Below, in pieces: positions 11,948-47,067 of a stretch of DNA of 48,454 nucleotides. A program made the translations under genes and the position numbers. How positions within the stretch are numbered: the stretch's first letter is position 1; each line of letters starts with the position of its first letter. A model generated the notes under the pieces. That model was not told the DNA's origin. It searched no databases and saw only the letters and a program-made list of their open reading frames with translations. This DNA comes from an uncultured Myxococcales bacterium (GTDB lineage: Bacteria; Myxococcota_A; UBA9042; CAIXZC01): assembly GCA_964565265.1 (NCBI GenBank), contig CAZMEC010000002.1:1-48454 (forward strand), written 5' to 3'.

Positions 11948-11955
11948 GGCGGCAA

Positions 11956-12747
11956 TCAGCGGGGAAGGCGCCGAAAGCCGGGGCCGAAGTCCACATCGGG
12001 GATGATGTAGACCTTGGTCCTGGTCTCGGGGCGCAGGAAGGCGTGGTCCTCTTCGCTCCAGATGAAGCGGCCGTTGCCCTGCTCGTTGGCGCTGGCGCAG
12101 GGACCGCCCTTGCCGGGGCAGCCCGCGGGGCAGTTCTTTTCCCGAAGGGTCCAGGTGAAGTCCCCGACGGCGGGGGCCTGGCCCCCTTCGGGGGTCTCCC
12201 ATTTCAGCTCCGACCGGTAGTTGTAATTGCCCTGCTGGCAATCCCCGCTCCAGGTGCCCTTGAGGCCCAGCGTGAAGAAGAAGCGGTATTCGACCTCGGC
12301 GCCCAGGGACGCCAGGACGATGAACTCCCGGGTGCGCCGGGACTTCTCGAAGGCCGAGGTGACCACGGCGTGGAGTAACAGGTCCGGCGTGCCGTCATTG
12401 CCAAAGTCCCCCAGCCAGGCGTTCTTGACCTTGGTGTCCAGGGGATTCCACATGGTGGCCTCCACGGCCAGCAACTCGGACCAGTCGCCCTTGGCGCCCT
12501 GGCCCATGAGGAAGACCTTGCCGCTGCCCTCGCAGTTGCGCTTGATGCCAAGCCCGAAGGCCGGAGCCCCCTCCCCCGTGACCAGCTTCACCGTGGTCGC
12601 ATCGAAGTCCGCGGGGGCCTTCGCCGTCGCGGGCAGGAACTTGTCCAGGCGGGTCACCGTCCCGGGACAGTCGAAGATGGGGCTGGGGTCATTGTGGCTG
12701 CACCCAACTACAAGCAAGGCGGCCAACAGGGCAAATCCAGGTTTCAT
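11956..12747 (-). CDS. lipoprotein, 263 aa, with one FG-GAP/VCBS-like motif
   Basis: ATG start with lipobox MKPGFALLAALLVVGCSHN. It contains a GDFGNDGTPDLLL motif. It ends 9 nt before the IPT/TIG gene start on the same strand. Confidence 0.7.
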   Translation of the reverse strand: MKPGFALLAALLVVGCSHNDPSPIFDCPGTVTRLDKFLPATAKAPADFDATTVKLVTGEGAPAFGLGIKRNCEGSGKVFLMGQGAKGDWSELLAVEATMWNPLDTKVKNAWLGDFGNDGTPDLLLHAVVTSAFEKSRRTREFIVLASLGAEVEYRFFFTLGLKGTWSGDCQQGNYNYRSELKWETPEGGQAPAVGDFTWTLREKNCPAGCPGKGGPCASANEQGNGRFIWSEEDHAFLRPETRTKVYIIPDVDFGPGFRRLPR

Positions 12748-12780
12748 GAACAGTCTCCCTTCAAGCTTCGACGCCAGGAC

Positions 12781-14148
12781 TCAGGCCCCAGCGATGGTCA
12801 TCTCGCGCACCAGGAAGGTAGGCGCATTTATTGAAAAACGGAACTCCAGATCATTGCCCACGGCCTCCAGTCGTCCCCAGAAGTCCTGGAAACGGCAGCC
12901 CACCGTGATCTCGTGAACTGGATGAACAATCTTGCCATTCTCAACCCAGAAGCCCTCTGCACCCTGGGAAAAATCTCCCGTGGCGGGGTTGAACCCCGAA
13001 CCGATGAAGGAGCTTACCAGAAGGCCCGTGCCAAGGCGACCAAGCAATTCCTCCGGGCTGGCCGGGCCGGGCTTCAGGTACAGGTTGTGGGGCGCCACAC
13101 TGCTGGGACCGGACAGACCCCGGGCGCAGTGGCCGGTGGTGGGAATCCCCAGCTTGCCCCCATACCAGGAGTCACAGGGAATGGCCTTGAACAGGCCCCC
13201 TGAGAACAGCTCCAGGGGCGCCGTGCGGCAGCCGTCCGAGTCAAAGACCGTGCGGCCCGGGGCCACCAGCATCAGGGGATCATCAATCAGCGTCAGCTCC
13301 TCTGAGCCCACCCGGGTACCCAGGGCGCCGTCGAGATAGGAGGCCCCCTTCTGCAAGAGGTCCCCACTGGCGGCCCGAAACAGGTTGCCGATGAGGGCTG
13401 CGCCGGCCTCCGGCTCGAACAGCACGGGCCAGGTCCCGCTGGGGATCTTTTTGGCACCCAGCTTGGCCACGGCCCTGGCCCCGGCCTTCTTCCCCACGGC
13501 CTCCGGGCTCTCCAGGCCCTCAGGGGCCCGGGCCGCGCTGAACCACCAGGAGGTCTTCTTGCTGCCGTCCGCCCCCTCGGCCACGGGCTCCACGGACAGC
13601 GAGCAGTTGCTGGTCAACTCCACCGCGGCCAGCCCGGCGCTGGAATACATGGCCTGGAGACTGGCCCCTCCGGCGCAGCTTGCGCCCTCCGTCATGGTCA
13701 CCGCCGAGTGGTGGCCCAGGGCCGCCTTCTCACAGCGAGACGCAAGCTTGAATGCGCTTGATAGATCAAGATCAAACACCTTGGAATCAAACGCTTCCAT
13801 GTCGGGCTTTCCCAGATACAGCGAGGCCCCGTCCGGCAGGCGGTTCCCCGGGTCCTGGCTTAGCAGCGTGGCATGTTTCAGCAGCCTGGCCACCAGCTCC
13901 GCCGGGGGCACGAAGCGCCCATCTCCCAGGGCCGCCGAGGCACAGCGACCATCCCGAAACAGGCGAATCCCCATCCCCGAGGGGTTGGACTGGAGCAGCT
14001 CCTCGGCCACCCCGGCCCGGCACTTCACCGAGAAGGAGCGCCCCGCCTGAAAGGCCAACTCCACCTCTGCCCCCTGGGCCCGGGCCTCCCGAAGCAGCCC
14101 CTCGGCCCGCGCTTCCCATTGCTGCATGGTCTTCTCGAAGGGGTTCAA
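12781..14148 (-). CDS. pmbA: PmbA/TldE-family metalloprotease subunit
   Basis: 455-aa ORF with the typical PmbA_TldD family layout (N-terminal ...AEVELAFQAGRSFSVKCRAGVAEEL; C-terminal ...GDFSQGAEGFWVENGKIVHPVHEITV). The TTG start at 14148 has GGAGG 6 nt upstream and overlaps the tldD stop (TTGA). An alternative ATG lies at 14127. Confidence 0.85.
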   Translation of the reverse strand: MNPFEKTMQQWEARAEGLLREARAQGAEVELAFQAGRSFSVKCRAGVAEELLQSNPSGMGIRLFRDGRCASAALGDGRFVPPAELVARLLKHATLLSQDPGNRLPDGASLYLGKPDMEAFDSKVFDLDLSSAFKLASRCEKAALGHHSAVTMTEGASCAGGASLQAMYSSAGLAAVELTSNCSLSVEPVAEGADGSKKTSWWFSAARAPEGLESPEAVGKKAGARAVAKLGAKKIPSGTWPVLFEPEAGAALIGNLFRAASGDLLQKGASYLDGALGTRVGSEELTLIDDPLMLVAPGRTVFDSDGCRTAPLELFSGGLFKAIPCDSWYGGKLGIPTTGHCARGLSGPSSVAPHNLYLKPGPASPEELLGRLGTGLLVSSFIGSGFNPATGDFSQGAEGFWVENGKIVHPVHEITVGCRFQDFWGRLEAVGNDLEFRFSINAPTFLVREMTIAGA

Positions 14149-15692
14149 GAGGCACCTCCCATGGTGATTCCGTCAATTCTCACGGTGGGAATCCCCACCC
14201 CCACGGGCACGGACTGGCCATCCTTGCCGCAGGTCCACATGCCGTCACTCATGACCAGATCGTTGCCCACCGCCACCACCCGGCTGAGGGCGTCGGGGCC
14301 GTTGCCGATGATCATCAGATCCTTCACCGGCGAGGTAATCTTCCCATCCTCCACCAGGTAGCTCTCCACGGCCCGGAACACGAAGTCCCCGTTGGCGATG
14401 TTCACCTGCCCGCCGCTGAAGTTGCTGCAGTAGACCCCTCGCTTGCAGTCGGCGACGATCTCCCCGGGGGGAGTCTGCCCGGCCGCCATGAAGGTGTTGG
14501 ACATGCGGGGGATGGGGGGGTGGCGGAAGCTCTGGCGCCGGCCGCTGCCCGCGGCCACCCCGAAGTGGGCGGCGCTGATCCGGTCCTGGAGATAGGCCCG
14601 CAGGATGCCGTCCTCAATCAACACGGCGCGGGCCCCCGGCGCCCCCTCATCATCAAAATGGAAGCTGCCCCGAGCCCCGGGAAGCCGGGGATCGTCAATG
14701 ACTGTGCAAAGCTCCGAGGCCACCTTCTGGCCCAGGCGCCCGGAGTAGCGCGAGCTGCCCCGGCGGTTGAAGTCCGCTTCCAGGGGATGCCCCACGGCCT
14801 CGTGGAGCAGCACGCCGGAGGGCCCCGGCGCCAGGATGAGGACCAGCTCGCCGGAGGGGGCGGGCACAGCGTCCAACATCTTGACCGCAGTGGAGGCGGC
14901 CTCCCTGCCCACGGCCTCAGGGCTGCGGCCTTCAAACCAGACCAGCCCCCGGCGCCCACCGCCACCCGCCCGGGCGGTCTGTCGCAGGTCTCCCCGCTGG
15001 GCCACCACCGCTACATTGAAACGCAGGAGGGGCTGGACATCCACGGCCACCCTCCCCTCACTGGTCAGCACGGCCACCTCGCGGAGCTCTTCCACCAGGC
15101 TCACATCCACCTTCCTGACCAGGGGGGACACGGCCAGGGCCGCTTCCCGGGCCCGGGTGATAAGCTCGACGCGGCGCTCCAGGCCGACCTTCAAATCGCA
15201 GGAGGCGCCTTGGTACAGCTCCTCCCGGAGGTGGGCCTGGACCAGAGACGGAAGCGTCCCCCCCGTCCCCCCTGCCTGTTGAAGGGAGGCCGCGGCCAGG
15301 TCTCCAGCAGCCGCCAGCACCAGGGAGGCGTCAAAGCTCTGGGTGTAGCCGCTGGCCACCGTGTCCCCCTTGAGGGACCGCAGCCCCACGCCGCCATCCA
15401 AATCCCAGGCCAGATCCCGAAACACCCCGTCTTCATTCATCAGGGCCAGGGACTCGCGCCGCTCAAGGAACAGTTCGGCAAAATCCGCCCCCCGGGAGCG
15501 CAGCCTCGCGAGGGCCTCCAGGGCCGCCTCCCGGGGAAGCCCAAAGAGCCCCTCCGATCCGGTGGCCTGCCCCCCAAACCCCTCCGGCAGCCCCCCCGCA
15601 AGGAGCGGGTCCAGGCCACTGAGCAGAAGGGCCACCACGGAGCCCCCGAGGAAGTCCCGGCGACTGAGATTCTTGGATAACTTCGTCAGCAT
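14145..15692 (-). CDS. tldD: TldD-family metalloprotease with twin-arginine (Tat) signal peptide
   Basis: HEAVGHPLEADF metal-binding motif and family-typical C-terminus (GGQVNIANGDFVFRAVESYLVEDGKITSPVKD). The N-terminus MLTKLSKNLSRRDFLGGSVVALLL matches the S-R-R-x-F-L Tat consensus. The ATG at 15692 is preceded by GGAG. A TTG at 15704 is an alternative start. Confidence 0.9.
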   Translation of the reverse strand: MLTKLSKNLSRRDFLGGSVVALLLSGLDPLLAGGLPEGFGGQATGSEGLFGLPREAALEALARLRSRGADFAELFLERRESLALMNEDGVFRDLAWDLDGGVGLRSLKGDTVASGYTQSFDASLVLAAAGDLAAASLQQAGGTGGTLPSLVQAHLREELYQGASCDLKVGLERRVELITRAREAALAVSPLVRKVDVSLVEELREVAVLTSEGRVAVDVQPLLRFNVAVVAQRGDLRQTARAGGGGRRGLVWFEGRSPEAVGREAASTAVKMLDAVPAPSGELVLILAPGPSGVLLHEAVGHPLEADFNRRGSSRYSGRLGQKVASELCTVIDDPRLPGARGSFHFDDEGAPGARAVLIEDGILRAYLQDRISAAHFGVAAGSGRRQSFRHPPIPRMSNTFMAAGQTPPGEIVADCKRGVYCSNFSGGQVNIANGDFVFRAVESYLVEDGKITSPVKDLMIIGNGPDALSRVVAVGNDLVMSDGMWTCGKDGQSVPVGVGIPTVRIDGITMGGAS

Positions 15693-37079: not shown

Positions 37080-37535
37080 CTAGACCTCTTTCAGGAGGAA
37101 CCTGGCTTCCACGGCGCTGATCTTGTCCACCCGGCGGCGATGTCGTTCGTCAAAGGGGGTGGCCAGCCAGGCCTTTACCATTTCGGCGGCGAGGGCCGAG
37201 GCCAACAGCCTCCCCCCAAGCACCAGCACATTGGCGGCGTTGTGTTCGGAGGCGAGGGTGGCGGTCTGGATCGAATGAACCAGGGCGGCCCGGATGCCGG
37301 GCACCTTGTTGGCCACGATGCTGACCCCGATGCCCGTCCCACAGACCAGGATGCCGCGCTGGCACTCCCCCGAGGCCACAGCCTGGGCCACGGGCAGGGC
37401 AAAATCCGGGTAGTCGACACTGAGCTCCGAGCCCGTGCCATAGTCCACGAAGTCGTGGCCCAGGGTCACCAGGGCTTTCTTGAGTTCTTCTTTGAGGGCG
37501 AATCCGCCGTGGTCGGCACCAATTGCAACTTTCAT
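37080..37535 (-). CDS. rpiB: ribose-5-phosphate isomerase B (RpiB/LacA/LacB family)
   Basis: MKVAIGADHGGFALKEEL...GILVCGTGIGVSIVANKVPGIRAAL, 151 aa. Confidence 0.9.
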   Translation of the reverse strand: MKVAIGADHGGFALKEELKKALVTLGHDFVDYGTGSELSVDYPDFALPVAQAVASGECQRGILVCGTGIGVSIVANKVPGIRAALVHSIQTATLASEHNAANVLVLGGRLLASALAAEMVKAWLATPFDERHRRRVDKISAVEARFLLKEV

Positions 37536-37597
37536 GGCGTGCAGAATAAGCCGCGCCTTCTTCCCCAGTCAAGGGGTCCGGGCCCAAAAAAAATGCC

Positions 37598-37627
37598 TTA
37601 GACCGGGGCCGGCTGCTCGTGTACAAT
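37598..37627 (+). promoter_or_regulatory. possible sigma70-type promoter for the aminotransferase-epimerase-hutI string
   Basis: TTAGAC-N18-TACAAT lies in the divergent rpiB/aminotransferase gap. The -10 element ends about 30 nt upstream of the GTG at 37657. Confidence 0.4.
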
Positions 37628-37656
37628 CGGCCCGTTTTACGCTCAAGGAGGCTGCT

Positions 37657-38775
37657 GTGGTCCAACTCCTCGATATCTCCCGGATGCACGCTGAAGTGGA
37701 CGGAGCTATTCGCAAGGCCCTGCTAGGGGTCTACGAGTCCGGCCAATACATCCTGGGCCCCTGGGTCCCCCAGCTTGAGACCCAGCTCGCCGCCTGGCTT
37801 GGCGTGCCCTTTGCGGTGGGCGTCTCCAGCGGCACCGACGCCCTGGTGGCGGCCCTCGACGCGGTTGGCTTCGCTCCCGGCGGGCAGTGGATCACCACGC
37901 CCTTTACCTTCGTTGCCACGGCGGACGCCATCGTGCGCGCCGGCGGCGTCCCGGTCTTCGTGGATGTGGACGAGGACACCCTCCTGGTGGATCCCGAACA
38001 GGTCGATGCCGCCTGCGGCCCCCGCACCGCCGGCCTCCTGCCCGTCCATCTCTTTGGCCAGTGCGCGGATCTGGATGCCCTCCTGGCCATCGCCGGCGCC
38101 CGGTCCCTGCCCCTCATCGAGGACAACGCCCAGGCCATGGGCGCCCTTTGGCATGGCCGGCAGGCGGGCTCCCTGGGGCGCTTCGGCTGCTTCTCCTTCT
38201 TCCCCTCCAAGAATCTTGGCTGCCTTGGGGACGGCGGCCTGGTCACCGCCCAGACCGAGGCCGACGCCATTGAATTGCGGGCCCTGCGCGCCCACGGCTC
38301 GAAGAAGAAGTACCACCACGACCGCATCGGCGGGAACTACCGCCTGGACTCCCTTCAGGCCGCCGTGCTGCTGGCCAAGCTGCCCTCCCTGGAGGCCTGG
38401 AACCGGGCCCGCCAGGAGGTCGCCGCACGCTACCACACGCTCCTCGAACAGGCGGGGCTTGTCTCCCGCGGGTTGCTGCGCCCCCTGGGCCTGAACCCCG
38501 GCTCCACCCATGTCTTCCACCAGTTTGTGGTCCGCGCCAAGGACCGGGACGCCCTGGCCGCCCACCTGGGCAAGCACAACATCGGCAACGCCATCTACTA
38601 CCCCGTCCCGCTTCACCTCCAGCGCTGCTTCGCCAACCTGGGCTACCGCGAGGGATCCTTCCCCGTGGCCGAGAAGGCCTGCCGGGAGGTAATCGCCCTG
38701 CCCATCTTCCCCGGCCTCACCCAGGCCGAACAGGAAGAGGTGGTGGGCCGCATCGCCTCGTTCTATGGAGCTTGA
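37657..38775 (+). CDS. DegT/DnrJ/EryC1/StrS-family PLP-dependent sugar aminotransferase
   Basis: The GTG at 37657 is preceded by AAGGAGG, with an alternative ATG at 37684. Family pattern: QYILGPWVPQLETQLAAWLGVPFAVGVSSGTDAL...FFPSKNLGCLGDGG...GGNYRLDSLQAAVL. Confidence 0.85.
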   Translation: MVQLLDISRMHAEVDGAIRKALLGVYESGQYILGPWVPQLETQLAAWLGVPFAVGVSSGTDALVAALDAVGFAPGGQWITTPFTFVATADAIVRAGGVPVFVDVDEDTLLVDPEQVDAACGPRTAGLLPVHLFGQCADLDALLAIAGARSLPLIEDNAQAMGALWHGRQAGSLGRFGCFSFFPSKNLGCLGDGGLVTAQTEADAIELRALRAHGSKKKYHHDRIGGNYRLDSLQAAVLLAKLPSLEAWNRARQEVAARYHTLLEQAGLVSRGLLRPLGLNPGSTHVFHQFVVRAKDRDALAAHLGKHNIGNAIYYPVPLHLQRCFANLGYREGSFPVAEKACREVIALPIFPGLTQAEQEEVVGRIASFYGA

Positions 38776-38781
38776 CCAAGC

Positions 38782-39747
38782 ATGAAATCCTACTTGATAA
38801 CCGGCGGCGCCGGGTTCATTGGAAGCACTCTCTCGGGGCGGCTCCTTGCCCAGGGGCAGCGGGTGGTCATCCTGGATAACCTGGATCCCTACTACGACCC
38901 CGCCATCAAGCGCTTCAATCTGGCGCGGCTTCAGCGCCTGGGCCAGGACCGGCTGACCTTTGTGGAGGGCGATCTGCGCCGGGACAGCGACCTGGACCGG
39001 GTCTTCTCCCTGGGGCCCTTCGAGGTGGTCATCCATCTGGCCGCCAAGGCGGGGGTCCGCCCCTCCATTGAGATCCCCCACGAATACAACGAGGTCAATG
39101 TCACAGGCCTCCTCAAGATGCTGGAGGCCACCCGCACCCGGGGGCCGGGCCGCATGGTCTTTGCCAGCTCCAGTTCGGTGTACGGCGACGGCGCCTCCCG
39201 GGCCCTCTCCGAGGACCTCCCGGCGGATCAGCCCGTCTCGCCCTACGCGGCCTCCAAGCGCGCCGGCGAGCTCTACTGCCACACCTGGGCCCACCTCTAC
39301 GGCATGGACATCACGGCCCTGCGGTTCTTCACCGTCTATGGCCCCGCCCAGCGCCCCGAGATGGCCATTCACAAGTTCGCCCGCCTCATGGTCGAGGGCA
39401 AAGAGGTCCCCGTCTTCGGCGACGGCCAGTCCAGCCGCGACTACACCTTCGTGGAGGACATCGTGGACGGCATCCTGGCCGCGGCGGACCACCTCCAGGG
39501 CTATCAGGTCTTCAACCTTGGCGGCGGCCGCCCCGTGACCCTGGATCGCCTGGTCACCGTGCTCTCCGACGCCCTGGCTCTGACCCCGCGCATCGTCCGC
39601 TACCCCGCCCAGTCCGGGGATGTCTCCCACACCCTGGCCTCCGTGGAGAAGGCCCGGCGCCTCCTGGGCTACCGCGCCGAGACCCCCATTGAGGTCGGCA
39701 TCGCCGCCTTCGTGGCCTGGTTCAAGGAGTTGAACAGCACCCCATGA
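38782..39747 (+). CDS. NAD-dependent nucleotide-sugar epimerase/dehydratase (SDR, extended)
   Basis: ITGGAGFIGS Rossmann motif and YAASKRAGE catalytic YxxxK, 321 aa. Confidence 0.85.
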   Translation: MKSYLITGGAGFIGSTLSGRLLAQGQRVVILDNLDPYYDPAIKRFNLARLQRLGQDRLTFVEGDLRRDSDLDRVFSLGPFEVVIHLAAKAGVRPSIEIPHEYNEVNVTGLLKMLEATRTRGPGRMVFASSSSVYGDGASRALSEDLPADQPVSPYAASKRAGELYCHTWAHLYGMDITALRFFTVYGPAQRPEMAIHKFARLMVEGKEVPVFGDGQSSRDYTFVEDIVDGILAAADHLQGYQVFNLGGGRPVTLDRLVTVLSDALALTPRIVRYPAQSGDVSHTLASVEKARRLLGYRAETPIEVGIAAFVAWFKELNSTP

Positions 39748-41093
39748 GCCAGTCCCTCCAGACCCAGCCCCGGACCCTCCTGACGGGCATTGCCACGCTG
39801 GTCACCATGGTGCCCGGTCAGGCCAACTGCCAGGAGACCCAGCCGGCTTCCCTGGGGGCCATCTCCAAGGCAGCCCTGCTGATGGAGGGTGGCCGGGTCC
39901 TGGCCGTGGATACGGAGCTTCGCCTGGAGGCTCAGGTCCCCAGGGAGGTGCCCCGCCAGAATCTGGACGCACCGCTGGTGTTGCCGGGCCTGGTGGACTG
40001 CCACACCCACATCGTCTTTGGGGGCAACCGCATCGGCGACTTTGAGGCCCGCTGCAGTGGCCTGGGCTACCAGGAGATCGCCCGCCGGGGCGGGGGCATC
40101 GCCAGCACCATGAAGGCCACCCGCGCCGCCACCACTGAGGAACTCACGGACCTGGCCCGGGGCCGCCTCCAGCACTTCCTGGCCCAGGGGGTCACCTGCC
40201 TTGAGGCCAAGAGCGGCTACGGCCTCTCCACCGCCAGCGAGCTGCGCCTCCTGGAGGTCTGCCGCCACCTTCCCGATCACTTCGGCCACAATGTCCGCTG
40301 CACCTTCCTGGGCGCCCATGTGGTCCCCCCCGAGCACCGCGCCGACCCCCAGGTCTACGAGCAGATCATCCTCCAGGAGATGCTGCCCGAGGTGGCCCGC
40401 CGGGGCCTGGCGGATTTTGCCGATGTCTTCGTTGAAGAGGGCGCCTTCTCCCCCGCCCAGGGCCGCCGCATCCTGGAGGCCGCCAGGGGCCTGGGTCTGG
40501 GCCTCAAGGTCCACGCCGAGCAGATGGGCAACACCGGGGGCTGCGAACTGGCCGCCGAGCTTGGCGCCATCAGCGCCGACCATCTTGACTACGCCGGTCC
40601 CCGGGAGATCCGCTTGCTGGCCGACGCTGGGGTGATTCCCGTGTTTTTGCCCGCCGCCACCCTCTTCCTGGGACACCGCCATTTCCCCGCCGGGCGGGCT
40701 TTTGTGGAAGCAGGTCTTCCCCCCGCCCTCTCTACTGATTACAATCCCGGGTCGGCCATGAGTCCCAACCTGTTGCTGACGGGGACTCTGGGCTGTGTTC
40801 AGTGTGGTCTGACCCCTGAACAGGCGTTGGCTGCTGTGACCACCAGGGCCGCCGCTGCCATGGGTGTTGACGATTCCGGTATTCTGGCTCCTGGTTCCCG
40901 TGCTGATTTTTTTGTCGCCGACAGCCCCGATTGGCGCCAGTTGTTCTATCATTTCGCAGTCTGCCCTGTGGAACGGACATTCATTCTGGGAAGGTGCGTA
41001 TGGAAGCGCTATTCGGAGGTTGCCTCTTATGAAGCCACAAGACCTTCAGTCCAAGCTGAAGGAGGTCACCCAGGTTCTGGGCCCCGCGGCTAA
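39744..41093 (+). CDS. hutI: imidazolonepropionase
   Basis: PGLVDCHTHIVFGGNR, GGGIASTMKATRAA, EAKSGYGL, GAHVVPPE, KVHAEQ, SADHL and STDYNPGS follow the HutI amidohydrolase pattern. Its ATG overlaps the epimerase stop (ATGA). The last ~30 codons lie beyond the expected family end and overlap the next gene. Confidence 0.88.
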   Translation: MSQSLQTQPRTLLTGIATLVTMVPGQANCQETQPASLGAISKAALLMEGGRVLAVDTELRLEAQVPREVPRQNLDAPLVLPGLVDCHTHIVFGGNRIGDFEARCSGLGYQEIARRGGGIASTMKATRAATTEELTDLARGRLQHFLAQGVTCLEAKSGYGLSTASELRLLEVCRHLPDHFGHNVRCTFLGAHVVPPEHRADPQVYEQIILQEMLPEVARRGLADFADVFVEEGAFSPAQGRRILEAARGLGLGLKVHAEQMGNTGGCELAAELGAISADHLDYAGPREIRLLADAGVIPVFLPAATLFLGHRHFPAGRAFVEAGLPPALSTDYNPGSAMSPNLLLTGTLGCVQCGLTPEQALAAVTTRAAAAMGVDDSGILAPGSRADFFVADSPDWRQLFYHFAVCPVERTFILGRCVWKRYSEVASYEATRPSVQAEGGHPGSGPRG

Positions 41094-41880
41094 GTCCTTC
41101 AAGGGCCTCCAGCGGGTCCTGGCCAGCCAGGATCAGGATCCCCTTCTGCTCCATGGTCCCCTGGAGGAGGCCTCGGCGCTGCTGCTTCGCCTTGGGCAGA
41201 CGGCGGCCTCCCTCTCCCTCGAGCTGGATCTGGCTCGCCAGCAGTTGGCCCCGACCCTTAGGGACCGCCAGACCACCTTTGGCGCGGACCTCGAGGACGC
41301 CTTCAAGGAAGCTGGCCTCAAGCTCCACGGCAGATGGCCCCGCTGGACCTCCGGCCCCTGGCAGTTCCTGGCCTCCGACGACCTCAAGACCTGTGAACTT
41401 CAGTGGGGCCCCGGGGTGGAGACCCTGGAGCGCTTCCCCGTTGGCGTGGAGGCCGCCCTGGAGGCCCTCCGCCAGCAGGAGACCCAGTTCGCCTCCGCCC
41501 ACGACCCCGCCGCCCTCCCCCAGTTGCTGCTGGCCGCCACCCGCATGGCCAGCGCCCGCCTGGGCCTTCGCGAAGGCGACCCCGCCCCCCTGAACACCGT
41601 CCACGCCTGTCTGGCGTTCTTGCAGCAGGGCCAGGGCTTTCTGGATCGCCCCACCCGGGCCTCCTGGAAGCAGGACTACTCCCGGGCACGCTTCTCCTTC
41701 GACCTGTCCCGCCTGCGGGGGCTTCGCCTGGAGGACCAGGAACTGCGCCTCCGCGTGGCCACCAGGGACCAGACCAGAAAACCCGGCAACGCCTTCTGGT
41801 TGCCCGATGACGCGTCCGGCAACGGCACGCTGTTCCACTCCGTCCAGTTCGTGAAGAGGGAGGATCAAGTTGGCAGATAA
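41029..41880 (+). CDS. hypothetical protein, 283 aa, first gene of the ATPase-helicase operon
   Basis: The ATG at 41029 has GGAGG 9 nt upstream, and the longer ORF from 40864 lies wholly inside hutI. The product is helical and Leu/Ala/Arg-rich with no recognisable motif. Its stop overlaps the next start by 11 nt. Confidence 0.5.
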   Translation: MKPQDLQSKLKEVTQVLGPAAKSFKGLQRVLASQDQDPLLLHGPLEEASALLLRLGQTAASLSLELDLARQQLAPTLRDRQTTFGADLEDAFKEAGLKLHGRWPRWTSGPWQFLASDDLKTCELQWGPGVETLERFPVGVEAALEALRQQETQFASAHDPAALPQLLLAATRMASARLGLREGDPAPLNTVHACLAFLQQGQGFLDRPTRASWKQDYSRARFSFDLSRLRGLRLEDQELRLRVATRDQTRKPGNAFWLPDDASGNGTLFHSVQFVKREDQVGR

Positions 41881-43102
41881 TCTCAGCAGACAGTGGGCCC
41901 GCCGGATCATTGAAGTCGTCGGGGCCCACGGCATTCCCCCCGAGTGGGGTTCCAACCAGTTCTCTGTGGGCCTGGACCCCTGGCTGGATGTGATGGCCCG
42001 GGACTACCTGGACAGCTATGTGGGTGAGGACGGCGGGGCGGCCTTCAAGTTGGTGGTGGGCGCCTACGGTGGCGGCAAGACCCACTTCCTCTACAACATG
42101 AGGGATCTGGCCTGGCGTCGGGGCTTCGTGGTGGCCTATGTGCCCCTCTCCAAGGATGAAACCCCCTTCCACCGGATGGAACTGGTCTACGCCGCCGTGG
42201 CCCGCACCATCGCCCCCCCCCAGGGTCCCGAGGACCTGGCCGAGGGCGGTCGCCGGGGCCTGGGCGCCATCATCGACCAGATCGCCGTTGGCTTGAAGGC
42301 GCTCAAGGGTGAGGCCCTGGAGGCCGAGATCGAGTCCCGCCTCGCCTCCATCGAGAACCTGGGTTTCCTCCAGGCCATGCGCCGCGCCCTGACCTACGCG
42401 GCCCAGGGCGACCACCGCAACCTCGAACAGGTGCTGGGCTTCCTCATGGGCCAGGACTTCGACCGCAAGTTCCTGCGCAACCTGGGCCTCTCCCGGGGCA
42501 TTGACCGCTCCAACGCCTTCTCCATGCTGCGCTCCCTGGTGCAGTTCCTCCGGGCCTTCAACTACCGCGGCCTGGTGGTCCTCTTCGACGAGGCCGAGCT
42601 CCTCCCCTCCCTGTCCTCCCGCGAGAAGCAAAACCTCCTGGCCAACCTCCGCGAGCTGGTGGACTCCTGTGGCAACAACCAGTTCCAGAATGTGATGTTC
42701 TTCTACGCCGTCCCCGATTACAGCTTCTTTGACGGCAAGCTCAATGTGTACGAGGCCCTCAAACAGCGCCTCGGCTCGGTCTTCGACTTCGACAACCCCA
42801 CGGGCGTCAGCATCGAGCTGGAGCGCACCCTGGGCGACCCCGAGACCGCCCTGCGCCAGATTGGCAGCCGCCTCCTGGCCATCTACCAGACGGCCTACGA
42901 CTGGAAGGCCCCGGGGGACATGGAGCCGCAAATCCAACAACTGGCCAAGGAGGCCTTCCGTCGCCGAGGCGGTGAGATTGGTTACAAGCGCCTCTTCGTG
43001 AAGTCCGCAGTCCGCCTCTTCCACGGCGCCCGCGCCGGCAAGCTCCTCAACGCCACCGCCGAGGAACTCGCGGACCTGCTGCTGCAGGGGGGCGCGGCTT
43101 GA
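41870..43102 (+). CDS. P-loop ATPase, DUF2791/BrxD-like (paralog 1), 410 aa
   Basis: The TTG start has GGGAGGA 6 nt upstream. Walker A is GAYGGGKTHF and Walker B is LVVLFDEAE. The N-terminal region (RRIIEVVGAHGIPPEWGSNQFSVGLDPWLD) resembles the regulatory N-terminus of the family. The family call is by eye. Confidence 0.7.
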   Translation: MADNLSRQWARRIIEVVGAHGIPPEWGSNQFSVGLDPWLDVMARDYLDSYVGEDGGAAFKLVVGAYGGGKTHFLYNMRDLAWRRGFVVAYVPLSKDETPFHRMELVYAAVARTIAPPQGPEDLAEGGRRGLGAIIDQIAVGLKALKGEALEAEIESRLASIENLGFLQAMRRALTYAAQGDHRNLEQVLGFLMGQDFDRKFLRNLGLSRGIDRSNAFSMLRSLVQFLRAFNYRGLVVLFDEAELLPSLSSREKQNLLANLRELVDSCGNNQFQNVMFFYAVPDYSFFDGKLNVYEALKQRLGSVFDFDNPTGVSIELERTLGDPETALRQIGSRLLAIYQTAYDWKAPGDMEPQIQQLAKEAFRRRGGEIGYKRLFVKSAVRLFHGARAGKLLNATAEELADLLLQGGAA

Positions 43103-44505
43103 AGATCGAAGGCTCCCTGCGCGTTTTCCACCGCCATCTTGGCCGTGGCACCCTCCAGTCCCTGATGTTTCGGGGACGGCGGGCCCTGGTCTACTTTGAC
43201 CGCGGCCCCACCCTGGCGGTCTGGGTCAGCGAGCTCACCACCGTGCTGGACGAAGGGCCCATGGGCCGGGGCGTGAAGCTCCGGGCGGACCTGAACCTGC
43301 CTTTGCTGGGGGGGGCCGGGGGGGACCGCAAGATCATTGAGAGCTTCCGCCTGGGCATCGTCCCCGAGTCCGCCGTCCAGGAGTGGACCTTTGGCCGGGA
43401 GGGTGAGCTGTCCTACCTCTCCGAGTGGCTTGCCGACCCGGATGAATCCGTCTTCTATCTTTTCGGCGACTACGGCAGCGGCAAGACCCACTTCCTGAAC
43501 GCCGCGGCCCTGGCCGCCGAGCGCGAAGGCTGGGTGGTGGCCATGGTCCCCCTGGACCCCCTGGACTCCCCCCCCAGCGCCCCCCGCAGGGTCTACAACC
43601 GCATCATGCAGAACCTCCGCTGGCGGGGCCCCGACGGGGCGGCCTGCGACGCCCGGGATTTGATCCAGCGCTGCATCGACGGGGGCATGGACGCGGGCAC
43701 CCCTGACCACCCCTACCTGACCGAGTTCCTCCAGCGCCTGGGGCGCTGCCGCAACCCCGAGCGCCTCTGGGCCTGGCTCATGGGGGAGGAGGAGGGCATC
43801 CTCACGGACCTGCCCACCATGCACGACCACACGACGGCCTCCAACCTGTATTGCAACCTGCTGAGCTTCTTCGGCCACGCCGCCAAGACCTGGTGTGGGG
43901 CCAAGGGGCTGCTGCTGCTGCTGGACGAGGCCGAGATGGTCACGGCGGTGCGGTGGCATCAGCAGATCCAGCGGGGCCTGGACTTCATCACGGGGCTGTC
44001 CCTGGCGGCCAACCTGGACGAACGCCTCATCGACGAGCCCGTGGTCAAGGAAGAGGGCCTGCACATCTATCGGGGGGCCAACACGGGGCTGGTCTATTCG
44101 GGACACCTCAAGGCCCTGCCCTACCTGCACCCCCTGGCCCGGGACGAGCGCACCCTCAAGGTCATCTTCGCCGTCACCCCCACGGACCTGATGCGGGACC
44201 TGGTCGAGCGCCACGACTTTGACGCGATGGACCTGGAGCCCCTGCCCCAGAAGGCCTTGGAGACCCTGTTTGACCGCTTCACGCGGCACTACCGGGAGGT
44301 CCTGGGGGTGTCTGCGGGGCGCCGCGAGATGGACCGCATCAAGCGGGCCCTCTTTGGGGACCTGGCCGTGCACGGCACCCAGCGCCGCTTCATCAAGGGG
44401 ATGGTTGAGGCCATGGACTACCTGCGCTTCCACCACGCCCGGGGCCTGGACTCGCTGCTGGGCATGGACCTGAATCCCGACACCACCTTCGGTGCGAAAT
44501 GGTGA
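43099..44505 (+). CDS. P-loop ATPase, DUF2791/BrxD-like (paralog 2), 468 aa
   Basis: The TTG start overlaps the previous stop (TTGA) and follows a G-rich SD. Walker A is GDYGSGKTHF and Walker B is LLLLLDEAE. A conserved pre-P-loop segment is present (IIESFRLGIVPESAVQEWTFGREGELSYLSEWL). It has about 60 extra N-terminal residues relative to paralog 1. Confidence 0.7.
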   Translation: MKIEGSLRVFHRHLGRGTLQSLMFRGRRALVYFDRGPTLAVWVSELTTVLDEGPMGRGVKLRADLNLPLLGGAGGDRKIIESFRLGIVPESAVQEWTFGREGELSYLSEWLADPDESVFYLFGDYGSGKTHFLNAAALAAEREGWVVAMVPLDPLDSPPSAPRRVYNRIMQNLRWRGPDGAACDARDLIQRCIDGGMDAGTPDHPYLTEFLQRLGRCRNPERLWAWLMGEEEGILTDLPTMHDHTTASNLYCNLLSFFGHAAKTWCGAKGLLLLLDEAEMVTAVRWHQQIQRGLDFITGLSLAANLDERLIDEPVVKEEGLHIYRGANTGLVYSGHLKALPYLHPLARDERTLKVIFAVTPTDLMRDLVERHDFDAMDLEPLPQKALETLFDRFTRHYREVLGVSAGRREMDRIKRALFGDLAVHGTQRRFIKGMVEAMDYLRFHHARGLDSLLGMDLNPDTTFGAKW

Positions 44506-46070
44506 ACCCCTCCCGGCTGCTCAAGCGCACCTGGCCTGTGTTCTTCCAGGTCTTTGGCAGCCTCACGGAGGTCCAGAAGCGGACCCTTCAGCCCCTGCTG
44601 GCGGGCCGCAACACCGTGGTCTCGGCCCCCGCTGCCAGTGGAAAGACGGAGGCCGTCTTTGCCCCCATGATCGAGCGCATGCTGCACTTCGGGGTCTTCG
44701 ACCAGCCGGGCTACGGCTTGCTTTATGTGGCCCCCACCCGGGCCCTGGTCAACGACATCTACGAGCGCCTCCGGGACAAGCTGCCGCGCCTGGGGATTGC
44801 GCTGGCCAGACGCACGGGCGACAAGAAGGACCGCCAGGGCAGCGAACCCTCGGGGGTGCTGCTGACAACCCCGGAATCTCTGGACGCCCTGCTATCCAGG
44901 AAGGGCGATGTGTGGGGGCCCCGCCTGGGGGTCATCCTGGACGAGCTTCACATGGTGGACGGCAGCCTCCGGGGAGACCAACTCCGGGTCCTGCTGCGGC
45001 GCCTGGCCCATTCCCCTGGCGCCCCGGCCCTGCGCTTCGCGGCCATGTCCGCCACCTTCAGCGATCCGGCGGCGGTGGCCGAGCGCTACTTCCCCGTGGA
45101 GTCCGTGGTCATCCAGGAGAGCCAGCGGGCCATGCGCGTCCACCGGATCAAGGAACTGCTGGACCTGCCCGACCTCATGGGCAACTTCGGCTGGAAGAAA
45201 CTGCTGGTCTTTGCCAATACCCGGGCAGCCACCGAACAAACGGCCCGGGACCTGCACCAGGTCTGGCCCGGGCAACGGGTCTGCGTCCACCACGGCAGCA
45301 TTGACCGGGCCGAGCGCCTGGAAGCTGAGGCGGCCCTGCGGGAATGGAAGAGTGGCATCTGCGTGGCCACCTCCACCCTGGAGGTTGGCATTGACATCGG
45401 CGATGTGGATGCGGTGCTGCTGGTGGACCTGCCCACCACGGTGGCGGCCTTCTCCCAGCGGGTGGCCCGGGGCAGCCGCAGGCGGGGCACCGTGGAGGTG
45501 GTGGTGCGCATCGCCAATGAGGGCGACGAGGCGGCCTTCCATCTGTTGATGGGCGCCCTGGAGAACCACCCCGATGCCAGCCTCGTCCCAGAGCCGGATC
45601 CAAGCGTGGCGGTCCAGCAGATCTTCTCGCTGTTCTACAGCCGCCGGGAGGGCATGACCCTGGCCGAGGTCACGGATCTGCTGCTGCCCATTGCCTCGCC
45701 CCACCGGGTGGAGCTGATCCTCCTGCACCTGACCACGCTTGGGCTGGTCAAGCACAGCCGGGGCCGCTTCATCCCCTCCACGGAAATGCTGGACCTGGGC
45801 GAACGGGGCCTCATCCACTCCAACATCCCCGACACCCGGGAGCGCCAGGTCGTGGACGCCGACTCGGGCCATCCCCTGGCCAGCCTCTCCTTGAACGCCA
45901 ACGCTGGGGAGACGGTCTTCCTGGCGGGGCGACACTGGACCGTGGTGGAGGCCACCAACAGCCGGATCATCGTGCGCTCCTCAGGGGAACGGGCGGAGGG
46001 CGACATCCGGTTCCGCAAGCGCGCCACCCGCAGCCCCTTCGCCCGCTACCTGCCCCCAGAGCTGGCTTAA
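44499..46070 (+). CDS. SF2 DExH helicase, Lhr/BrxHI-like, 523 aa
   Basis: The ATG overlaps the upstream stop by 7 nt. Motifs seen: motif I SAPAASGKT, motif II ILDELH, motif III MSATFS, motif V VATSTLEVGIDIGDVD and motif VI QRVARGSRR. The C-terminal segment is of Lhr DEAD_assoc type (IHSNIPDTRE...GETVFLAGRHWTVVEATNSRIIV). Confidence 0.85.
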   Translation: MVNPSRLLKRTWPVFFQVFGSLTEVQKRTLQPLLAGRNTVVSAPAASGKTEAVFAPMIERMLHFGVFDQPGYGLLYVAPTRALVNDIYERLRDKLPRLGIALARRTGDKKDRQGSEPSGVLLTTPESLDALLSRKGDVWGPRLGVILDELHMVDGSLRGDQLRVLLRRLAHSPGAPALRFAAMSATFSDPAAVAERYFPVESVVIQESQRAMRVHRIKELLDLPDLMGNFGWKKLLVFANTRAATEQTARDLHQVWPGQRVCVHHGSIDRAERLEAEAALREWKSGICVATSTLEVGIDIGDVDAVLLVDLPTTVAAFSQRVARGSRRRGTVEVVVRIANEGDEAAFHLLMGALENHPDASLVPEPDPSVAVQQIFSLFYSRREGMTLAEVTDLLLPIASPHRVELILLHLTTLGLVKHSRGRFIPSTEMLDLGERGLIHSNIPDTRERQVVDADSGHPLASLSLNANAGETVFLAGRHWTVVEATNSRIIVRSSGERAEGDIRFRKRATRSPFARYLPPELA

Positions 46071-46365
46071 GCGAGGCTAGGGCTGATGGACCCCGGCTCC
46101 CTGCCGCGCACGAAGTAAGCGGGAAGGCTACCCCTTCCCAGCCGCGCACGAAGTAAGCGGAAAGGCCGTCCAAGGTCTTCCCAGGGCCTTCGCCGGGGCA
46201 GGGCCCTGGAGAGCCGGCGGCCCGGGGGGATTGTTCCCCCCAGACCGCCTACCCGCTTCGGGCCGCGCACGCCCCCCTTGAAGAGGAAGGCGGCCCGAAG
46301 AGGGTGCCTCCAGGGCTCCTGCCCCTGCTGCGGCCTCCCACGCTTGTCCCTTCCCAGCCGCGCAC
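45812..46365. repeat. copy A of a 554-bp direct duplication (helicase 3' end plus downstream spacer)
   Basis: It aligns base for base with 46465-47018 at a constant offset of 653. I found two mismatches by eye (45830 C vs 46483 G; 45869 C vs 46522 G). Confidence 0.9.
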
Positions 46366-46377
46366 GAAGTAAGCGCC

Positions 46378-46455
46378 AGTGACCGGAACCGGTACCAACT
46401 GAGCCCTCCCTCAAGGAGCGGGCGGCGAAAACAAAAAGTGACCGGAACCGGTACC
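46378..46455. repeat. pair of perfect 19-nt direct repeats inside the 99-nt junction between the duplication copies
   Basis: AGTGACCGGAACCGGTACC occurs at 46378-46396 and 46437-46455. Each contains the small inverted repeat ACCGG-AA-CCGGT. Confidence 0.85.
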
Positions 46456-46464
46456 CACACGCCC

Positions 46465-46723
46465 CATCCACTCCAACATCCCGGACACCCGGGAGCGCCA
46501 GGTCGTGGACGCCGACTCGGGGCATCCCCTGGCCAGCCTCTCCTTGAACGCCAACGCTGGGGAGACGGTCTTCCTGGCGGGGCGACACTGGACCGTGGTG
46601 GAGGCCACCAACAGCCGGATCATCGTGCGCTCCTCAGGGGAACGGGCGGAGGGCGACATCCGGTTCCGCAAGCGCGCCACCCGCAGCCCCTTCGCCCGCT
46701 ACCTGCCCCCAGAGCTGGCTTAA
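46465..46723 (+). pseudogene. duplicated 3' fragment (last ~86 codons) of the Lhr-like helicase gene
   Basis: It has the same reading frame and an identical peptide to the helicase C-terminus. The frame is closed by a TGA at 46439-46441, so there is no helicase core upstream. The only internal start is a GTG at 46505 with no SD. Confidence 0.7.
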
Positions 46724-47018
46724 GCGAGGCTAGGGCTGATGGACCCCGGCTCCCTGCCGCGCACGAAGTAAGCGGGAAGGCTACCCCTTCCCAGCCGCGC
46801 ACGAAGTAAGCGGAAAGGCCGTCCAAGGTCTTCCCAGGGCCTTCGCCGGGGCAGGGCCCTGGAGAGCCGGCGGCCCGGGGGGATTGTTCCCCCCAGACCG
46901 CCTACCCGCTTCGGGCCGCGCACGCCCCCCTTGAAGAGGAAGGCGGCCCGAAGAGGGTGCCTCCAGGGCTCCTGCCCCTGCTGCGGCCTCCCACGCTTGT
47001 CCCTTCCCAGCCGCGCAC
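46465..47018. repeat. copy B of the 554-bp direct duplication
   Basis: See copy A. Copy B ends at ...CCCAGCCGCGCAC, followed by a C-rich CCCCAACACC-type tract. Confidence 0.9.
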
Positions 47019-47067
47019 CCCAACACCTCCACACCCCAACACCCCAGTCCCCGCATCCGCACAGCCT

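Follow-up and report, generated by a model that had tools for sequence, protein, structure and literature searches.

Does a compact run of genes that joins BrxD-like ATPases to an Lhr-like helicase form a system of its own, or is it a piece of a known one? The question is raised by a locus in the genome of an uncultured Myxococcales bacterium (contig CAZMEC010000002.1 of assembly GCA_964565265.1), of which a stretch of 48,454 nucleotides (nt), hereafter the window, was analyzed. At 41029–46070 on the plus strand lie four co-directional genes, named g1 to g4 here, and the open reading frame (ORF) coordinates confirm the successive overlaps of 11, 4, and 7 nt that an original prediction, made from the window's letters, had described. 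The genes encode a protein of no annotated family, two BrxD-type ATPases, and a superfamily 2 (SF2) DExH helicase. On the evidence given below, we hold with high confidence that they constitute a conserved, self-contained four-gene module. Its function can be approached by analogy, and we put the probability that it is a defense or conflict (anti-phage or anti-mobile-element) module, a variant resembling Shango and BrxD–BrxHI, at roughly 55%.

Recurrence of the cassette across genomes

A pattern scan with a sub-alignment of g1 covered one genome per GTDB species (185,579 species genomes, scanned non-exhaustively) and gave 35 loci, spread patchily over more than 10 bacterial phyla and the archaea. 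The bacterial loci come from Planctomycetota (including Candidatus Brocadia), Poribacteria, Atribacterota, Chloroflexota, Acidobacteriota, Kapaibacteria, Cyanobacteria, Nitrospira, Clostridia, Tectomicrobia, and one Deltaproteobacteria metagenome-assembled genome (MAG), and the archaeal loci come from Methanosarcinales/ANME-2 and Methanodesulfokora. The contig is long enough to show the cassette at 29 loci, which were taken as informative, and their ORFs were searched with the window proteins. At 25 of the 29, the order g1-g2-g3-g4 is found on one strand and tightly packed. Complete cassettes occur, for example, in Candidatus Brocadia pituitae (L008, AP021856.1) and Candidatus Chloroploca asiatica (L027). 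Because the same gene order occurs in dozens of unrelated genomes, the cassette is not a product of chance, and the earlier view of it as a distinct compact system, not a fragment of another, is strengthened. g1 is the first gene in every cassette, both ATPase paralogues are present in every complete one, and the catalytic motifs of g2, g3, and g4 are intact and conserved across lineages.

The genes on either side have no family in common beyond closely related genomes, which argues that the cassette is a self-contained unit. With flanks unshared outside a lineage and a patchy distribution, these genes do not form a universal core locus. A conserved fifth gene was sought and rejected, since the flanking ORFs cluster only among close genomes and the immediate downstream genes all differ. 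The exceptions to the four-gene order are few. Two ANME/Methanosarcinales loci (L033 and L035) carry g1-g2-g3 and no helicase, the Poribacteria chromosome OZ240244.1 (L009) has an orphan g1 homologue at 8986–9855 with g2–g4 not nearby, one locus has an unrelated ORF at the helicase position, and another retains all four genes with a 1-kb gap before g4. These exceptions look like decay or rearrangement, and the incomplete forms would represent either decay or alternative partnerships; the helicase-less loci and the orphan g1 fit with a dispensable accessory module. A locus assigned to "Micrarchaeota" (L007, CAYHPR010000029.1) was considered as a case of inter-domain transfer and rejected: with a g2 94% identical to the copy of Candidatus Brocadia pituitae, the 3.7-kb contig is probably misbinned and not archaeal.

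No description of the g1-g2-g3-g4 architecture was found in the open-access literature. The cassette occurs almost wholly in lineages that are uncultured or seldom studied (among them anammox bacteria, Poribacteria, ANME archaea, and Myxococcota), which defense discovery based on Escherichia coli, Bacillus, and Pseudomonas would not reach.

The four proteins

The two middle genes encode the ATPases, both on the plus strand (g2, 41870–43102, 410 amino acids (aa); g3, 43099–44505, 468 aa). g2 matches the Pfam family PF10923 (BrxC_BrxD) over residues 8–383, that is, over its full length, with an E-value of 3.1e-43 and 148.7 bits, and g3 matches it over residues 77–180 only (2.4e-16, 60.1 bits), against a Pfam gathering score of 22.2 bits. 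Among the PADLOC models, both score higher with BrxD (g2, 3.5e-39; g3, 1e-13) than with SngB (7.5e-17 and 5.5e-7, respectively). The ATPases thus belong to the BrxD family and not to an unrelated housekeeping family. In the NCBIfam model NF033438 (BREX_BrxD), g2 and g3 reach 132.5 and 49.6 bits, both under the equivalog cut-off of 350 bits, and g2 is at most 31% identical to annotated BrxD proteins on plasmids. PDB sequence searches with g2, g3, and the g2 profile gave no meaningful relatives.

Both proteins carry the Walker motifs seen earlier. In g2, Walker A is GAYGGGKTHF (G64-x-Y66-G67-x-G69-K70-T71-H72) and Walker B is VVLFDEAE (D240-E241-A-E243); in g3, they are GDYGSGKTHF (G123-x-Y125-G126-x-G128-K129-x-H131) and LLLLDEAE (D276-E277-A-E279). 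The motifs do not vary among 15 diverse homologues of g2 (they are at least 90% conserved in 36) or among 15 homologues of g3. g2 is the most conserved component of the cassette, with 37–44% identity to the copies in other phyla and archaea. The strong divergence between the two ATPases is also borne out, with 27% identity over 248 aa. A profile–profile alignment by hhalign joins the two families from end to end (probability 99.9%, E 5e-31, 347 columns), and by this sequence comparison g3 is a full-length, diverged paralogue of g2; the ATPase was thus duplicated long ago, and the pair is fixed in the cassette.

Only g3 bears, at its N terminus, an additional domain of ~45 residues (43099–43260, plus strand). 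The family motif is VxHxxYGxGxV...GFEL.V.F.DG..RWVR.DEL, and the copy in the window, VFHRHLGRGTLQSLMFRGRRALVYFDRGPTLAVWVSEL, is degenerate. The Pfam family PF21196 (PcrA_UvrD_tudor) matches three of 15 members of the g3 family (best E 1.3e-4), and the best five matches of a PDB profile search are all C-terminal domains of UvrD/PcrA (6yi2, 7egs, 7egt, 5dma, and 9dqs), with E-values of 4.9e-3 for 6yi2 and 5.6e-3 for 7egs. These matches are each marginal and mutually consistent, and they suggest that the N terminus of g3 resembles the PcrA/UvrD C-terminal Tudor domain, with which it shares V-x-H-x-x-[FY]-G-x-G-x-V followed by V-x-F. In PcrA/UvrD, however, this domain is located at the C terminus of an SF1 helicase, whereas in g3 it precedes an AAA+ ATPase. 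The Tudor domain of PcrA/UvrD binds RNA polymerase and UvrB.

The last gene (g4, 44499–46070, plus strand, 523 aa) encodes an Lhr/Ski2-like SF2 DExH helicase. The full set of motifs that the original prediction recognized is present: ASGKTEA (I, with K49), PTRAL (Ia), TTPESLD (Ib), DELH (II, D148-E149-L-H151), SAT (III), and QRVARGSRR (VI), all of which are conserved among 25 homologues. Pfam identifies DEAD (2.6e-29) and Helicase_C (4.2e-16), and the best PADLOC match is SngC (1.7e-66, model positions 19–560 of 720), followed by BrxHI (1.4e-64, positions 22–515 of 698). Because these alignments stop at model positions ~515–560, g4 is a shortened helicase without the last ~160–180 residues of BrxHI and SngC. 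The Lhr-type C-terminal domain proposed earlier is weakly supported: WH_Lhr matches over 32 residues with an E-value of 0.095, at 12.5 bits versus a threshold of 27. The C-terminal region of ~180 aa has conserved motifs of its own, D.SV.VQQ.FS and G.IHSNIPD. The closest solved relatives of g4 are Lhr structures, 5v9x (mycobacterial Lhr core, 2.7e-26) and 7lhl. g4 is related to the Lhr-core and Ski2-like helicases over the two RecA-like domains, with the full DExH motif set, but its match to the Lhr core is limited to the motor region (best stretch, residues 9–197). Moreover, Lhr is a single-gene repair helicase without dedicated ATPase partners.

The first gene (g1, 41029–41880, plus strand, 283 aa) lies in an ORF that opens at 40864; its start was set at the ATG at 41029, in agreement with the N termini of homologues. 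As anticipated, it carries nothing recognizable, with no match in Pfam, PADLOC, or NCBIfam. A word-indexed search with g1 gave just six close clusters, and one with a 51-sequence profile gave seven proteins and nothing new, but a profile search of 1.84 billion representative proteins collected 528 clusters (counted at 50% identity) at E ≤ 1e-3 and 353 at E ≤ 1e-10, nearly all of 270–290 aa and aligned over their full length. No meaningful Pfam family was found in 51 diverse members. An AlphaFold2 model built from the 51-sequence alignment is confident (predicted local distance difference test (pLDDT) score 93.2, predicted template modeling (pTM) score 0.82) and consists of a long N-terminal helical hairpin (residues 3–94) and a basic alpha/beta domain (residues 100–276). 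Compared by Foldseek with PDB and with BFVD, a library of viral structures, this model had no match at E ≤ 1e-3, and the weak matches are generic coiled coils; a first model built from seven sequences was poor (pLDDT 65), and its Foldseek matches were noise. g1 therefore founds a sizeable unannotated protein family, a new one of more than 500 clusters, without a Pfam entry or a structural relative in the libraries searched.

The alpha/beta domain of the g1 family contains the motifs G..P.L..G.FT, WYGP, Q...F..DP.R..F..Y.R..FSYDL.RL, and LRLxVATRxQTR....LW[VI]P....G.GT, and the conserved positions are mainly Gly, Pro, aromatic residues, Arg, Gln, and Thr (e.g., in LRLxVATRxQTR and W-[VI]-P). 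No conserved cluster of acidic residues, His, or Cys that would point to catalysis was found in the family alignment, the median isoelectric point of the family is 9.0, and no hydrophobic run of transmembrane length is present. On these grounds we infer a non-enzymatic role, in which g1 would bind nucleic acid or a partner protein. An identity of g1 with the TerB-type protein SngA of Shango was tried and rejected, as none of the 51 members matches TerB_N or TerB_C at E < 0.01, and the comparison of the family with the TerB_N protein of a Roseovarius Shango locus gave an hhalign probability of 0.35%.

Known systems, candidate function, and alternatives

The canonical systems nearest to the cassette are Shango and type 2 BREX. 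Shango, which consists of the TerB-like protein SngA, the ATPase SngB, and the helicase SngC, protects against phages (Johnson et al. 2023, PMC10250203). The two have the same layout, a non-enzymatic first protein followed by a PF10923-type ATPase and an SF2 DExH helicase, and neither has a nuclease in its core genes; the best PADLOC match of g4 is SngC, and g2 and g3 both match SngB. They differ in the first gene, which encodes a TerB protein in Shango and a non-TerB protein whose predicted fold has no known relative here, in the ATPase, which is the single SngB there and two fixed paralogues here, one with a Tudor-like N terminus, and in the helicase, which is ~200 residues shorter in the cassette (523 aa versus 725 aa in the Roseovarius example). 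That example (L041) is a canonical Shango-type trio of a TerB_N protein, an ATPase, and a helicase at 77610–85375 of the Roseovarius indicus plasmid NZ_CP031599.1, and tblastn with its TerB_N protein found nothing in the window. Because the TerB gene is absent and two ATPases are present, the cassette is, by its gene content, not Shango. At the Roseovarius locus, a PD-(D/E)XK nuclease gene follows 3 nt after the helicase gene and may encode the nuclease partner that is absent from the window cassette. Millman et al. 2022 is reportedly a source for Shango alongside Johnson et al. 2023.

In type 2 BREX, the ATPase BrxD, an AAA+ protein of the ORC/Cdc6 clade, shows tight linkage with BrxHI, a role as the loader of BrxHI has been proposed for it, and an Lhr-CTD-like domain has been placed in the C-terminal part of BrxHI (PMC12839542). 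The cassette resembles this dyad in its PF10923 ATPases, in the match of g4 to BrxHI, and in the position of an ATPase gene directly before the helicase gene. However, the dyad has one ATPase where the cassette has two and an extra g1, and BrxHI, a helicase with a wHTH, a HAS barrel, and an Lhr-CTD-like C-terminal domain, is ~700 aa long, whereas the 523-aa g4, judging by its alignment to the BrxHI model, lacks the part that bears the Lhr-CTD-like domain. The core genes of type 2 BREX (PglW, PglX, BrxC/PglY, and PglZ) were not found in the window. In agreement with the original prediction that PglX, PglZ, and a TerB protein are absent, tblastn across the 48 kb found no PglZ, PglX, BrxL, or SngA; ten large ORFs of the window had no PADLOC match, a scan that would cover PglW and BrxC, for which no separate queries were made. 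With the core genes absent and g2 at 132 bits versus the 350-bit BrxD cut-off, the cassette is, again judging by sequence, not type 2 BREX.

The matches of three of the four proteins to BrxD/SngB and BrxHI/SngC models might suggest a locus left over from type 2 BREX or Shango by decay, or an accessory part split off from one of them, with no function of its own. This reading is largely refuted by the census and very improbable, since the catalytic motifs are all intact across phyla, nearly all loci have the unit, with its own g1 and duplicated ATPase, in the absence of PglX, PglZ, PglW, and TerB genes, and g2 is far from bona fide BrxD in both score and identity.

A defense role is inferred from the homology of the ATPases to BrxD/SngB and of the helicase to BrxHI/SngC, and from a minority of loci with defense neighbors; to this extent the earlier candidacy of the locus as a conflict or defense module is supported. 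Among 131 flanking ORFs pooled from the loci, the defense minority comprises subunits of type I restriction–modification systems, PIN domains, PglZ, and PglX. One informative case is a cyanobacterial locus (L026) with the order pglX, g1-g2-g3-g4, an RNase III-like gene, pglZ, and brxL, in which the cassette is embedded in type 1 BREX. The pglX–pglZ interval of type 1 BREX is known to host embedded defense systems such as BrxU and PARIS (PMC11341690). Elsewhere, a GmrSD/Orf5-like gene lies upstream of the cassette (L031), an Mrr_N-domain gene overlaps the helicase stop codon (L010), and a PIN-domain gene adjoins the cassette (L035). The RNase III-like gene of the cyanobacterial locus (6074–6817) directly follows the cassette and encodes 247 aa with a double-stranded RNA-binding domain (Ribonucleas_3_3, 3.4e-21). 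It was met at this locus and at no other, and it may be an additional effector there.

A distant variant of the cassette is found on plasmids. Its first product is a 279-aa g1-like protein (hhalign against the g1 family, probability 97%, E 6e-11), its two PF10923 ATPases lack the Tudor domain, and its helicase is ~700 aa long. On a conjugative Aulosira/Tolypothrix plasmid, it directly follows pglZ-brxD-brxHI of type 2 BREX, so that a genuine BrxD–BrxHI pair and the cassette variant stand side by side as separate units. In Desulfomonile tiedjei DSM 6799, which is in culture, it lies at 10215–15641 of a 27-kb plasmid (NC_018026.1), where it adjoins AbiEi/AbiEii and ParA and occupies ~20% of the plasmid. 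A genome scan for this long-helicase variant returned the identical Tolypothrix plasmid alone.

Here, we propose how such a module might act; the specific loader and adaptor mechanism is tentative and drawn by analogy, as the cassette plausibly works like Shango and BrxD–BrxHI. BrxD-type ATPases belong to the same AAA+ clade as the ORC/Cdc6 initiators, which serve as an analogy of mechanism and not of family, and two paralogous ATPases encoded beside a helicase gene suggest a hetero-oligomeric loader. The analogy has its limits, since g4 is a monomeric-type SF2 enzyme and not a ring-shaped MCM or DnaB helicase, and no origin-binding winged-helix domain was identified. In the proposed mechanism, a g2–g3 hetero-oligomer would spend ATP on loading the helicase onto foreign or aberrant nucleic acid, or on activating it there. 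The basic g1 would be a nucleic acid- or target-binding adaptor or sensor, taking the place of the TerB protein of Shango, and the Tudor-like N terminus of g3 may anchor the assembly to another factor, for instance RNA polymerase. As the cassette has no nuclease gene, the helicase would itself interfere, by unwinding or by stripping intermediates of replication or transcription, or host nucleases would attack what it produces.

Taken furthest, these steps would describe a hitherto unrecognized, nuclease-free immune system of bacteria and archaea, in which g1, with its new fold, senses the invader, and a heteromeric ATPase pair, docked to the transcription machinery by the Tudor-like domain, loads a minimal Lhr-like helicase that blocks phage replication or transcription by itself. 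We consider this a possible picture with the odds against it. If it is true, the cassette would be the simplest natural model for the workings of the BrxD–BrxHI and Shango modules, as the ATPase–helicase pair stands here apart from any methyltransferase, phosphatase, or TerB partner, with a second ATPase and a new first protein. An active cassette would allow direct tests of whether PF10923 ATPases load helicases and of nuclease-free defense.

Several observations weigh against a defense role. No effector domain such as a nuclease is present in the four proteins, and the Tudor assignment of g3 depends on marginal E-values. The majority of the surveyed flanking genes are ordinary housekeeping genes (RecG, TPR, luciferase-like enzymes, lyases, and radical SAM enzymes), and a recognizable defense neighbor occurs in about one-quarter of the non-redundant loci, a fraction without a background rate for comparison. 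In the window, the G+C content of the cassette is uniform and like that of the surrounding genome (0.67–0.68), and in its lineage the cassette diverges at about the rate of its neighbors and is vertically stable beside hutI. Window-type g1 is absent from the 72,556 plasmids of PLSDB. Neither INPHARED phages, searched with g2, nor IMG/VR, searched with g1 patterns, returned anything, and a phage or prophage origin of the cassette was rejected for lack of evidence in these two collections.

The main rival is housekeeping genome maintenance, in which an Lhr-like helicase, its AAA+ loader pair, and a DNA-binding adaptor, recruited to RNA polymerase by the Tudor-like domain, would act in the manner of PcrA/UvrD and Lhr to resolve R-loops, stalled complexes, or conflicts between transcription and replication. 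The nearest solved relatives of the helicase are the DNA-repair Lhr structures, the N terminus of g3 resembles the Tudor domain of PcrA/UvrD, and the cassette has neither a nuclease nor a toxin. Its vertical synteny, host-like composition, and neighbor-like divergence in the Myxococcota also point this way, as do the mostly housekeeping flanks elsewhere, such as RecG upstream of the cassette in L005. We nevertheless regard maintenance as unlikely. Thirty-five loci in a non-exhaustive scan of the species genomes are a very patchy spread, neighbors are not conserved between lineages, and truncated copies exist; one cassette lies inside type 1 BREX, plasmid variants adjoin type 2 BREX and AbiE, and the nearest homologous modules, BrxD–BrxHI and SngB–SngC, are defense components.

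A role in competition between, or maintenance of, plasmids and mobile elements is a good deal less probable. The cassette would then exclude or destabilize rival replicons or aid replication of its carrier, with the copies on chromosomes being insertions that were domesticated or left behind. The share of the Desulfomonile plasmid taken up by the long-helicase variant beside ParA and AbiE, its presence on a conjugative cyanobacterial plasmid, and the resemblance of ORC/Cdc6-like ATPases with a helicase to a replication initiator and its helicase favor this reading. However, the window-type cassettes in the sample are all chromosomal, with none in PLSDB, and no integrase, transposase, or replication gene was seen among the 25 commonest Pfam families of the flanks and ten ORFs, for which no dedicated screen was made. 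The window locus likewise bears no mobile-element marks and keeps its host synteny. With the alternatives thus weighed, we favor defense or conflict as the function of the cassette.

The Myxococcota lineage and the surroundings of the locus

The cassette had been described as stand-alone. This holds for the four genes taken together, but in this lineage they are joined to others. A DegT-type aminotransferase, an NAD-dependent sugar epimerase/dehydratase, and hutI form a tight co-directional string at 37480–41093 of the window that runs into g1, with a hutI/g1 overlap of 65 nt. The upstream neighbor scores as hutI above the NCBIfam cut-off (TIGR01224, 374 versus 298 bits), and the downstream neighbor is sod. 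The closest genome is an uncultured Myxococcales MAG with 82–95% protein identity. Relatives at 40–65% protein identity keep the DegT aminotransferase, the epimerase, hutI, g1, g2, g3, and g4, with varying genes downstream; the DegT–epimerase–hutI string is at 6648–10008 in L001 and at 1781–5132 in L002, and the hutI/g1 overlap in the more distant relatives is 8 nt. The contig of a close relative has ribD, nrdR, rpiB, DegT, and the epimerase upstream, and no other hut genes are among the called genes of the relatives' contigs. The cassette is probably co-transcribed with hutI in this lineage, and the association may amount to a common transcript only or to a functional link peculiar to the lineage.

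Compared with a relative, the identities are 64% for g2, 52% for g3, 50% for g4, and 41% for g1, the fastest-evolving cassette member, and those of the neighbors are 61% (DegT), 58% (epimerase), and 48% (hutI). Because the synteny is kept, the divergence is like that of the neighbors, and the G+C content is uniform, the cassette is an old, vertically inherited resident of this lineage and not a recent island.

Long ORFs of 324–546 aa lie antisense to the genes at 39669–40952, 40981–41955, 41384–43024, and 42982–44436, all on the minus strand; they are typical of DNA with 67% G+C. In the public annotation of the close relative, an antisense ORF of 428 aa is called where hutI belongs.

The repeat DNA reported after the operon is present and corresponds to a direct tandem duplication with a period of 653 nt at 45808–47021. 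The two copies (45808–46368 and 46461–47021) are ~99% identical and contain the last 263 nt of g4, its stop codon, and ~300 nt of downstream DNA, so that a truncated second helicase 3' end is left at 46461–46723. The duplication could be real or an assembly artifact. The spacer between the helicase gene and sod is ~1 kb in the window versus ~100 nt or less in the close relative L003. Short dispersed repeats occur in it at 46098–46819 and 46128–47019, including a 31-nt unit, TCCC[T/A]GCCGCGCACGAAGTAAGCGG..., present five times, a 23-nt unit present six times, and a pair of AGTGACCGGAACCGGTACC repeats at 46378 and 46437. These spacer repeats may be repetitive extragenic palindromic (REP)- or miniature inverted-repeat transposable element (MITE)-like elements.

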